This document shows, piece by piece, positions 52,228 through 53,855 of a stretch of DNA of 64,000 nucleotides. Origin of the DNA: Planctomycetota bacterium (lineage in GTDB: Bacteria > Planctomycetota > Phycisphaerae > SM23-33). The stretch covers positions 129,724-193,723 of the forward strand of contig JAKJER010000004.1 of assembly GCA_022705325.1 (NCBI GenBank), written 5' to 3'. A program made the position numbers and the translations under genes. Numbering within the stretch: position 1 is the stretch's first letter; each line of letters begins with the position of its first letter. Under the pieces are notes generated by a model that did no database searches, was not told the origin of the DNA, and saw nothing but the letters and a program-made list of their open reading frames with translations.

Positions 52228-53169
52228 TCAGCGGCCGGTGCGAAGGCGATGCGGGGCGAGCAGTCCGGCGAGCAGGGCGGGGTCGGCGAGTTCCTTTGTG
52301 CTGAACTGTCTGCACGCCAGGTGGAAGAGGTAGTTTCGTACGGCCGCCGGCGCCTGGTCTTCGCTGGGGCCGAGGTCGCCGTCGGCCATGGAGGCCAGCG
52401 CCCGAGGCAGGTCCGCCAGCGAGCAGCGCCGGGCGACGCGTGCAATGGTGTAGGAAGCGGGGCCGAGGGCCAGAAGCGGACACCCGGCGGCCAGGGCCTC
52501 GTTGCCCGAGTTGGAGTTGATGGTGACGGCGAAGCGAGCGCCCGCCAGCGCGTCCTGGAGGGACCCGTCGATCACCCGGGCCCTTCCGGTCCAGCCGAAC
52601 CGCCAACTCGAGCTGGGATGGACGCGTACGCGGATGTCCAGGTCGCAGGGGGAGGCGTCCTGGACGGCCTGCACCAGGGGCAAAGGGTGATGCAACTCGC
52701 AGCCGTCGAGTTGGCTGTCGCAGGCGACCTGGAGCAGCAGGAGCAGGTAGCCGTGGCGGCGCGAGCGAAGCGGCTGGGGCAGACGCCCGTAGGAGCCGAC
52801 GAAACGGGCCTGGCCCTCCGGCGGGGCCGGGGCACGGAGGATGTCTTGGCGGGCCCACGAGGCGGTGTGACTGAAGCCCTGCGGGTCGAGTTGCGTGAAG
52901 CGATAGCGATCGAAGAAGCCGCGTTCCATGACGATCACGTGCAGGCCGCGGCGGCGGGCGTCGGCGGCGACCTGGCCCCAGAAGCCCTTTCGGCCGTTCC
53001 ACAGAAACAAGGCTTCGGGCAGTTCGGAGAAGCCGCCCAGGCGGCAATCGGCGCTGGGAGCGAGTACCTGCACCGAGTGGCCCAGGACCTCCAGACCCGC
53101 CTTCAACGAGGCGAACGGCTCTTCGGGGTTGGCGAAGCGGCGGTTGTCGCAGAGGATTCCGACTCGCAT
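52228..53169 (-). CDS. Capsule_synth (KpsC/KpsS/LpsZ-like) family glycosyltransferase-like protein
   Basis: C-terminal FAVTINSNSGNEALAAGCPLLALG resembles the conserved Capsule_synth GT-B motif (V.T.NST.G.EAL..GKPV). ATG at 53167-53169. Confidence 0.45.
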   Translation of the reverse strand: MRVGILCDNRRFANPEEPFASLKAGLEVLGHSVQVLAPSADCRLGGFSELPEALFLWNGRKGFWGQVAADARRRGLHVIVMERGFFDRYRFTQLDPQGFSHTASWARQDILRAPAPPEGQARFVGSYGRLPQPLRSRRHGYLLLLLQVACDSQLDGCELHHPLPLVQAVQDASPCDLDIRVRVHPSSSWRFGWTGRARVIDGSLQDALAGARFAVTINSNSGNEALAAGCPLLALGPASYTIARVARRCSLADLPRALASMADGDLGPSEDQAPAAVRNYLFHLACRQFSTKELADPALLAGLLAPHRLRTGR

Positions 53170-53855
53170 GATGGTCCTGTCAGATGGGTGTAGTGAGTGG
53201 CCGTGACGGCTTGAAGGCGGCTTCGGGGCGAGAGGTTCCACAGATGCCCGCCGAGCTGGCGCACGGCCCGTGCGGCGGCGGCGAACTGCTCCTCGACGCT
53301 CGCAGGCGGCGGGCGGTCGTATTGACCCTGCCAGCCCTCTTCGGCATGGTCATAGGGGCTGACCATCCGCGGGTGGCCGCCGTGGTAATCCAGACCCAGG
53401 AAGTAGATGCGCCGGCAGCCCTGGAAGAACGCCCAGTTGGCGGCCATCAGGCAGACGGACGAGTTGGCCAGGACGGCGGCCTCGCGGTTCTCGTCCAGGA
53501 CGGGCCGCTCCTGCCACGGGCCGTCGAAACGGAGGAACTGGTCGCAGTGGGTCACGCGGCGGTCGGCGGGTCCGACCTTCCAGGCCGGGCAGGGCTTCCA
53601 AAGCTCCTCGTGGTACCGGATGCCCCATTTCTGCTCGTGCCAGAGGTTGCGATAGGTGTCGCGGATGACCATGGCGTGGAGCGTCGCGCGGCGGAGGGCG
53701 GCGAAGGCCAGGCAACGGTTGGTGCCGACGATCAGGAGATCAGGGACCCTTCGCAGTGCGGACCAGAACGCCGGCGGCACCGAGTCGATGGACGGCCCGT
53801 TGCCCAGGACGAGGGCGACCTGGCCCGCGGGCGGCTGTCTGCTCGTGTGGGGCAT
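53103..53855 (-). CDS. GT42/DUF115 (CstII-sialyltransferase / Maf / MptE-like) family protein
   Basis: LVLGNGPSIDSV, LLIVGTNRCLAF and NSSVCLMAANWAFFQGCRRIYFLGLDY parallel CstII IAGNGPSL, DVFRCNQF and SGVYMCAVAIALGYKEIYLSGIDFY. 67-nt overlap with the downstream gene. Confidence 0.5.
   Translation of the reverse strand: MPHTSRQPPAGQVALVLGNGPSIDSVPPAFWSALRRVPDLLIVGTNRCLAFAALRRATLHAMVIRDTYRNLWHEQKWGIRYHEELWKPCPAWKVGPADRRVTHCDQFLRFDGPWQERPVLDENREAAVLANSSVCLMAANWAFFQGCRRIYFLGLDYHGGHPRMVSPYDHAEEGWQGQYDRPPPASVEEQFAAAARAVRQLGGHLWNLSPRSRLQAVTATHYTHLTGPSCESESSATTAASPTPKSRSPR

Follow-up and report, generated by a model that had tools for sequence, protein, structure and literature searches.

Two putative CMP-ulosonic-acid-type glycosyltransferase genes beside the capsid gene in a prophage lineage of Phycisphaerae

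INTRODUCTION

In the literature that we searched, glycosylation of the phage virion has been demonstrated only for a few actinobacteriophages, where it shields the particles from antibodies. Mycobacteriophages of cluster F1 (Che8 and Rita) code for their own glycosyltransferases, often together with a methyltransferase, that glycosylate the major capsid proteins, and the glycans form a shield on the capsid (Freeman 2023, as cited in PMC11256854 and PMC12582341). Here, we analyze two genes, A and B, located in the head operon of a Phycisphaerae prophage (contig JAKJER010000004.1, positions 129,724 to 193,723). We will refer to this whole stretch of 64,000 nucleotides (nt) as the window, and all the coordinates follow its numbering. 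Gene A (53103-53855, minus strand) codes for a divergent DUF115/Maf-like protein of 250 amino acids (aa) with a GT42-type fold, a predicted transferase of ulosonic acids activated with cytidine monophosphate (CMP). The product of gene B (52228-53169, minus strand; 313 aa) carries a Capsule_synth domain and resembles, in its modified GT-B fold (GT107-GT99-like), the retaining transferases of beta-linked 3-deoxy-D-manno-octulosonate (Kdo). Together they may serve to glycosylate the virion.

Maf proteins (DUF115/PF01973) act in the cytoplasm, where they O-glycosylate Ser and Thr residues of flagellin, a self-assembling structural protein, with nonulosonic acids, and those of Clostridium and Geobacillus also transfer N-acetylneuraminic acid (Neu5Ac) and Kdo; the catalytic residues described are E324 and D415 in Magnetospirillum magneticum and D257, D272, and S334 in Clostridium botulinum (bioRxiv 10.1101/2020.06.03.131540). 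The retaining beta-Kdo glycosyltransferase superfamily, on the other hand, is recognized by three hallmarks: the Asp of a QXXXD motif, which acts as the covalent nucleophile; a (K/R)XHP motif that lies at the CMP; and a Glu that serves as the general base (PMC9587256, PMC10148158, PMC12887879). The nucleophiles are D232 in WbbB, D160 in KpsC, and D193 in KrkA (PMC10148158, PMC12887879), and the base is Glu66 in KpsC and Glu158 in WbbB (PMC9587256, PMC10148158, PMC12887879). Kdo is passed on from CMP-beta-Kdo with retention, by way of a covalent Asp-Kdo adduct, and an adduct of +220 Da has been seen with the variants WbbB D232C, KpsC D160C, and KrkA D193C.

The product of gene B has in common with KpsC and KpsS (GT107), WbbB's N-terminal domain (GT99), and KrkA (GT140) the modified GT-B fold and the motifs QxxxD and (K/R)xHP. 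It differs from KpsC, WbbB, and KrkA in being a single phage-encoded module of 313 aa next to a capsid gene, and while lyso-phosphatidylglycerol, poly-Kdo, and O-antigen are the acceptors of the known enzymes, for gene B we propose a protein-linked glycan. Gene A and Maf (Magnetospirillum, structure 5mu5) have in common an N-terminal GNGPS and a central "...A..A..G...I.L.G.D" motif. However, at 250 aa and without flanking domains, gene A is much shorter than Maf (~630 aa; 632 aa in 5mu5), and its context is that of phage head genes instead of a flagellar glycosylation island. The GT42 enzymes Cst-I and Cst-II sialylate lipooligosaccharide glycans; no sequence-level match was found between their structures and gene A, which scores higher against Maf.

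There are also differences from cluster F1. According to the two citing papers, the transferase genes of these phages of Actinobacteria are found toward the 3' end of the genome, and as far as these accounts go they are not annotated as members of the DUF115 or beta-Kdo families. In our case, a planctomycete is the host, the genes form part of the head operon, their products are of the CMP-ulosonic-acid type, and glycosylation is a prediction. Glycosyltransferases are also carried by temperate phages in the gtrABC-type modules of lysogenic conversion. Those enzymes are membrane associated, use undecaprenyl-phosphate-linked sugars, are located next to the integrase and the attachment site (att), and are expressed in the lysogen, whereas A and B are soluble and belong to the head operon. 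Our searches revealed no previous description of enzymes of the Kdo or nonulosonate type in the head module of a phage, nor of glycosylated phages of Planctomycetota. All this suggests that, while phage-encoded capsid glycosylation is already established in cluster F1, the chemistry predicted for A and B has not yet been reported for any phage.

RESULTS AND DISCUSSION

Gene B, a member of the retaining beta-Kdo transferase superfamily

In the Pfam database, gene B matched Capsule_synth (PF05159) with 26.7 bits (gathering score, 20; E value, 4.9e-6), and most of its homologues have a precomputed match to the same family. An AlphaFold (AF2) model built from the family alignment of 30 sequences had a mean predicted local distance difference test (pLDDT) value of 91.7. 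When this model was compared with PDB using Foldseek, ranks 1 to 21 were all occupied by WbbB (GT99) or KpsC (GT107), with a probability of 1.00, template modeling (TM) scores of 0.49 to 0.58, and E values from 7e-11, for WbbB, to 7e-8. KrkA appeared at rank 43, and ordinary GT-B enzymes gave E values of 2e-7 or weaker. The family profile also recovered KpsC (6mgc; E value, 6e-4) and WbbB (E value, 0.026) among the PDB sequences, with an identity between gene B and the solved enzymes of only 15 to 18%.

The residues E82, Q147, D151, R182, H184, P185, N218, and S219 are invariant in the 30 homologues. They include both ends of the QxxxD motif (Q147-V-A-C-D151), and in the profile alignment D151 shares its column with KpsC D160, seen as N in the D160N entry 8fuw. 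The RxHP motif (R182-V-H184-P185) aligns with KVHP in KpsC and RAHP in WbbB. E82, within MERGFFDR, aligns with Glu66 (chain index 67) in the LEDGF stretch of KpsC and is a probable rather than certain base, because this part of the alignment is weak by itself (i-E value, 45). We are therefore confident, from fold and motifs, that gene B belongs to the retaining beta-Kdo glycosyltransferase superfamily, its catalytic activity being predicted. The initial annotation, made from the DNA sequence by itself, had called this gene Capsule_synth/KpsS-like and had advised a structure prediction and a search for the catalytic residues. Both bear out the Capsule_synth part of that name, with the QxxxD and RxHP motifs intact in a WbbB/KpsC fold. 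Orthology with KpsS was discarded, though: the corresponding NCBIfam model (NF050054) reached 15.9 bits against a cut-off of 600 and matched only residues 201 to 251. Since, in addition, kps capsule export genes were found in none of the loci examined, we treat gene B as a member of the superfamily and not as KpsS. By analogy, its donor is probably CMP-Kdo. Another CMP-ulosonic acid is possible because one member of the superfamily, KpsS1, is a retaining transferase of pseudaminic acid (PMC12887879).

In GenBank, the exact gene A and gene B of the window are annotated as "hypothetical protein," and a related gene B from Planctomycetes bacterium ADurb.Bin126 (same 90%-identity cluster) is named "Capsule polysaccharide biosynthesis protein." Some gene B homologues of ~540 aa (P0099, P0107, P0114, and P0116) have a GT32-like Gly_transf_sug DXD domain fused at the N terminus, with similarity to the TcdA/TcdB type. 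Such an arrangement of two modules is reminiscent of the multimodule WbbB.

Gene A, a divergent Maf-like protein

Neither the single sequence of gene A nor its family profile matched any of the PDB chains at the sequence level, and NCBIfam provided no usable match for gene A or gene B. As the PDB sequence searches were empty, gene A could be placed only by comparison of folds. Its AlphaFold model (pLDDT, 88) gave a single Foldseek match below an E value of 1e-3, the Maf flagellin glycosyltransferase 5mu5. In the fold comparison, Maf scored 13.6 (177 residues aligned), followed by the archaeal pterin pyrophosphokinase MptE (11.2), the GT42 sialyltransferase Cst-I (10.7), SteA (9.7), thiamine pyrophosphokinase (8.8), and the GT29 sialyltransferases (~7.5 to 7.9). 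What the model reproduces is the fold of the Maf central domain, which is related to GT42.

An exhaustive profile search over 1.84 billion representatives indicated that the family is small, with 26 clusters at E values of ≤1e-30, then a gap, and then weak matches down to 1e-3. PF01973 members make up 26 of the 42 weak matches between 1e-10 and 1e-3 (best E value, 1e-29), some of these distant relatives being fused to TPR, CMP-sugar-type cytidylyltransferase, or GT1 domains. Alignment with hhalign of the gene A family against 24 of the weak matches gave a probability of 99.9% and an E value of 4e-32 over 203 columns, a test in which the Pfam labels alone count as independent evidence because the partners had been picked by the same profile. 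One member of the family itself, P0005, has a precomputed PF01973 match. The invariant residues D66, D105, E125, S133, and D156 of the family are candidates for the catalytic ones. There is also a highly conserved, family-specific insert at residues ~65 to 125 (IRDxYR...WKP..WKVGP...THCD). Wherever the context was examined, the family was phage borne.

Judging by the model and the profiles, gene A is a divergent, minimal DUF115-fold protein, nearer to the Maf side than to GT42. The double label GT42/DUF115 of the initial annotation merged two families that share a fold; the DUF115 half of it agrees with structure and profile, although the Pfam match by itself is not significant. By analogy with Maf, we propose that gene A is the initiating protein O-glycosyltransferase of the CMP-ulosonic-acid type.

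Linkage to the capsid gene

The minus strand carries almost all the well-supported open reading frames (ORFs) between ~41.5 and 60 kb of the window, which has a GC content of ~67%. Downstream along this strand, the order is large terminase (58470-59999), portal (56890-58341), a small ORF (56213-56827), scaffold (55333-56169), major capsid protein (54070-55116), gene A, and gene B, all on the minus strand. Terminase, portal, and scaffold were recognized by PHROG matches. The capsid protein (348 aa) belongs to the Gp13-like family (PF20036; E value, 2.8e-48) and to PHROG 247, major head protein (E value, 2e-33), so the genes do lie directly downstream of the major capsid gene within the morphogenesis operon, as the initial annotation had described. 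Most other structural genes contain no Pfam domain, the ORFs at 59989-63181 have no Pfam match, and PHROGs contain no family for gene A or gene B. We consider the element a prophage of a Phycisphaerae genome since exact copies of the A, B, and capsid proteins are on record in metagenome-assembled genomes (MAGs) of Phycisphaerae and Planctomycetes (contigs of up to 542 kb) and ordinary cellular genes lie to its left, e.g., the large subunit of carbamoyl-phosphate synthase, carB (31845-35198).

We mapped the morphogenesis proteins of the window on 24 related loci (4 from metagenomes, 13 IMG/VR viral contigs, and 7 GTDB genome contigs, the latter all from Planctomycetota MAGs). All the loci with enough sequence showed the same order, namely, terminase, portal, scaffold, capsid, in some cases a small ORF, gene A, gene B, and a homologue of the gene at 48564-49424. 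The initial annotation had asked whether the pair would be missing from orthologous clusters, and it was present in all of those examined that had enough DNA. Further loci, reached through the capsid and through distant homologues, follow the same pattern, including some with capsids only 38 to 48% identical and contigs of 53 to 55% GC; over all the related loci, the capsids that precede gene A are 38 to 80% identical to that of the window. Homologues of A and B come from metagenomes and from MAGs of Phycisphaerae and Planctomycetota, where they have adjacent locus tags, and the two genes are co-oriented and tightly spaced or overlapping. Across homologues 37 to 93% identical, 33 to 35 residues remain invariant in genes A and B. 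A capsid-based search of IMG/VR, considering loci with enough downstream DNA, found no relative with a capsid identity of at least 38% and without the pair. In contrast, tblastn of both genes against 50,697 deposited phage genomes gave no match, and cultured phages with capsid identities of ≤31% have no A or B homologue, their capsid gene being followed by small unannotated or adaptor genes. As a side observation, the gene of ~200 aa at 56213-56827 separates portal from scaffold in the window and in L001, while in three other loci its homologue is located between the capsid and gene A (L004, 9487-9990; L005, 5349-5942; L007, 5324-5800). This shift is a local change of gene order inside the head module.

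The 3' end of gene A and the 5' end of gene B overlap by 67 nt in different frames (53103-53169). Both genes and their overlap had been pointed out by the initial annotation and are confirmed by the ORF coordinates, by a third-position GC content of 0.81 to 0.82, as in real genes of this 67% GC genome, and by homologues with E values of 1e-150 to 1e-40. The start positions (MPHTS... for gene A, with an open frame that extends to 54005, and MRVGILCDN for gene B) agree with those of the homologues in the family alignments. Such an overlap suggests translational coupling. The C-terminal tail of gene A that produces it is common only to the closest homologues (P0001 to P0003) and has low model confidence, and in relatives the junction consists of overlaps of 4 to 25 nt or short gaps. 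Upstream, a gap of 214 nt separates the capsid gene from gene A. It contains a GC-rich hairpin (CCCGGGCGGCCCCCGGG; 53885-53901, minus strand) followed by a weak T tail, detected by a consensus scan and inspection of the sequence, that may act as a leaky terminator and lower the expression of the enzymes relative to that of the capsid protein; in the region as a whole, hairpin-type terminator sites are not more numerous than expected from shuffled sequences. In relatives, gene A starts from a few to ~125 nt after the capsid stop codon, or after the small intervening ORF when there is one. A scan of 48 to 56 kb revealed no promoter-like sites, leaving A and B without one of their own. No membrane-like segments were found in either protein either, the maximum hydropathy over 19 residues (1.44 in A and 1.38 in B) being below the usual transmembrane threshold.

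Variable genes between A and B

Many relatives resemble the window in that A and B are adjacent or overlapping, but other lineages hold tailoring genes between them. In L012 (6641-10514), these are a Methyltransf_24/CmcI-like methyltransferase and a putative rhamnosyl transferase (Rhamno_transf); here, gene B has an extra N-terminal domain fused to it, and a second A-like ORF (9834-10514) is found just downstream. A methyltransferase, a radical-SAM/SPASM enzyme, and a second B paralogue occupy the same place in L039 (2892-5076). In L041 (7626-8905), we found a Sulfotransfer_2 protein and a radical-SAM/SPASM enzyme, and in L043 (7647-10747) a Methyltransf_24 protein, a radical-SAM/SPASM enzyme, and two unannotated ORFs. 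Methyltransferases of the Methyltransf_23 type also occur as cargo. From its gene content, the stretch between A and B, together with the accessory genes downstream, looks like a hot spot for accessory functions of the virion surface, a pattern that supports a role of A and B in building a glycan.

A possible capsid glycosylation module and its alternatives

We propose that A and B are the core of a module, expressed late, for the O-glycosylation of virion proteins with CMP-activated ulosonic acids, a reading that we consider about equally open to being right or wrong. It builds on the folds and families of the two proteins, the conserved catalytic residues of gene B, the strict linkage to the capsid, and the variable cargo. 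From these we infer which donor and acceptor are used, in which order the two enzymes act, and that gene A codes for a transferase and not for a kinase. As soluble cytoplasmic enzymes, A and B would use CMP-Kdo or a CMP-nonulosonic acid made by the host. The minimal Maf-like protein A would place the first ulosonic acid on Ser or Thr residues of a structural protein, in the manner of Maf on flagellin, and the WbbB/KpsC-like protein B would then add a beta-linked Kdo-type residue to this glycan by double displacement, with Asp151 as the nucleophile, His184 of the RxHP motif at the CMP phosphate, and Glu82 as the base. In relatives, the glycan would be diversified by the methyltransferases, sulfotransferases, and additional glycosyltransferases whose genes separate A from B. 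The most likely acceptor would be the major capsid protein encoded just upstream, favored because the gene linkage is invariant, and possibly accessory surface proteins as well. Planctomycetes have been reported to make lipopolysaccharide (LPS), and a host supply of CMP-Kdo is therefore plausible. More tentatively, and with somewhat less confidence than in the module itself, the phage lineage of Phycisphaerae may be seen as carrying a variable "capsid glycan island," bracketed by Maf-like O-ulosonyl and beta-Kdo-type transferases, that would build diverse acidic capsid glycans with lineage-specific methyl-, sulfo-, and radical-SAM enzymes and extra glycosyltransferases.

Several observations weigh against glycosylation of the virion. 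Of the two profile searches suggested by the initial annotation, the one with PF05159 succeeded for gene B, but PF01973 reached only 16.3 bits with gene A (gathering score, 34.6; E value, 0.009), below threshold and over residues 120 to 157 only. In Maf, moreover, large N- and C-terminal domains flank the catalytic domain, and gene A has neither. A scan of parts of the prophage revealed no CMP-sugar synthetase, and the donor must thus be supplied by the host. The characterized beta-Kdo transferases all use lipid or glycan acceptors and none a protein-linked glycan (PMC9587256, PMC10148158, PMC12887879). Finally, the position in a late operon is circumstantial, as late enzymes could equally target the cell envelope.

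This last point leads to the alternative that A and B modify the host envelope (LPS, a capsule-like polysaccharide, or a surface glycoprotein) and not the virion, for example, by beta-Kdo capping of a surface polysaccharide, as WbbB caps the O-antigen. The receptor would be masked, blocking superinfection or keeping the progeny off lysing cells. The characterized relatives of gene B do act on the envelope, KpsS and KpsC on the capsule linker and WbbB on the O-antigen (PMC9587256, PMC10148158, PMC12887879), and a variable tailoring cargo would suit an arms race over a cell surface antigen. Moreover, receptor-modifying glycosyltransferases are a well-known class in phages, such as gtrABC, with which Shigella and Salmonella phages modify the O-antigen. 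Yet classical conversion genes lie near the attachment site or the immunity region, code in part for membrane proteins, and are active in the lysogen, whereas in every lineage A and B follow the capsid gene directly, within the head operon, with neither a promoter detected nor a membrane-like segment, and the partner enzyme encoded by gene A most resembles a protein O-glycosyltransferase. Serotype conversion, the other role suggested initially besides glycosylation of virion proteins, thus fits poorly with gene position and the lack of membrane segments, and we regard modification of the envelope as the main alternative, although a rather unlikely one.

The kinase-like neighbors in the fold comparison raise the question of whether gene A is a transferase at all. 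It could be a (pyro)phosphotransferase similar to DUF115/MptE or thiamine pyrophosphokinase, or a noncatalytic partner, so that gene B alone would move the sugar or the pair would act on a small molecule or a lipid-linked intermediate unrelated to virion proteins. Maf, however, outscored MptE and thiamine pyrophosphokinase in that same comparison, and we find this possibility quite improbable. Even less credible, to the point of being hardly worth entertaining, is that the pair is a decaying or selfish passenger without a current role in the phage. It is true that the pair is absent from distant cultured phages of the same capsid family, where adaptor genes follow the capsid directly, but both genes are intact, their invariant residues include the catalytic motifs of gene B, and the position is the same in all the lineages examined, so that conservation already contradicts the idea. 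A role in DNA hypermodification was rejected because the genes belong to the head module and not to the replication module and because we know of no DNA glycosyltransferase with either of the two folds.

Neighboring genes and possible acceptors

In the window prophage only, four genes (49439-52150) are inserted between gene B and the conserved gene downstream, all of them on the minus strand. The first (51734-52150; 138 aa) has no Pfam or PHROG match and no homologue in the 24 related loci. The second (51276-51737; 153 aa) is a Ser/Thr-rich ORF (21% Ser plus Thr), also specific to the window. It is followed by a protein of 280 aa with a LamG/concanavalin A-like lectin fold (50431-51273) that matches Laminin_G_3 (E value, 1.3e-17) and PHROG 8510, virion structural protein (E value, 1.7e-11). 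The last one (49439-50422; 327 aa) is fiber-like, with an internal tandem repeat (ADYTxPANxDVAAxKAxTD) and a C-terminal Ig-like domain, for which there are weak subthreshold matches to Big_1 and CarboxypepD_reg; it has no homologue at the corresponding place in relatives. PDB sequence searches with the fiber-like gene and the 153-aa ORF gave no match. Ser and Thr add up to 17 to 21% in the 153-aa, LamG, and fiber-like proteins versus 7 to 12% in the head proteins, and, from this composition, the inserted proteins could be accessory proteins of the virion surface or acceptors of glycosylation. The former is probably the case of the LamG protein, judging by its matches; LamG proteins were found after the module in the window, L012, and L041.

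Next comes a gene of the morphogenesis block (48564-49424, minus strand; 286 aa) that is conserved (50 to 57% identity by tblastn), its homologue being located immediately after gene B in L001 to L007, L009, and L019 to L024, and that has no Pfam, PHROG, or PDB sequence match. In general, the genes downstream of the module are conserved in related phage loci and mostly unannotated, with one weak match to a tail protein. The initial description of the pair as lying between capsid and tail genes is thus roughly right.

The capsid itself has features that might be related to glycosylation. Within the lineage, there is a Ser/Thr-rich loop, variable by indels, at alignment columns ~156 to 160 (TTDGSTAS in some members and absent in the window), and the C terminus is conserved as ...DHRxxxxVKGVFNA(S/T). 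In Paracoccus phage vB_PmaS-R3, a distant cultured relative without the pair, the C terminus of the capsid is different. Loop and C terminus may be glycosylation sites, but these are only hints from the alignment. As for the rest of the window, positions 1 to 35200 correspond to the host chromosome and include a 1149-aa protein with a He_PIG Ig-like domain (28162-31611) and a GT2 glycosyltransferase (25871-27049).

Implications

If our proposal is true, this would be the first case of Kdo or nonulosonic acid glycosylation of a phage particle, the first system of virion glycosylation outside the actinobacteriophages, and, for the beta-Kdo transferase superfamily, the first acceptor that is linked to a protein. 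The acceptor range of both Maf/DUF115 proteins and retaining beta-Kdo transferases would be widened, and compact enzymes (~220 to 310 aa) would become available for putting Kdo-like sugars on proteins. For the phages themselves, a CMP-ulosonic-acid-type system would be hard-wired beside the capsid gene across a whole lineage that infects Planctomycetota, and such a second system, chemically different from the one already described, would make the coating of capsids with sugars a broader strategy among phages.

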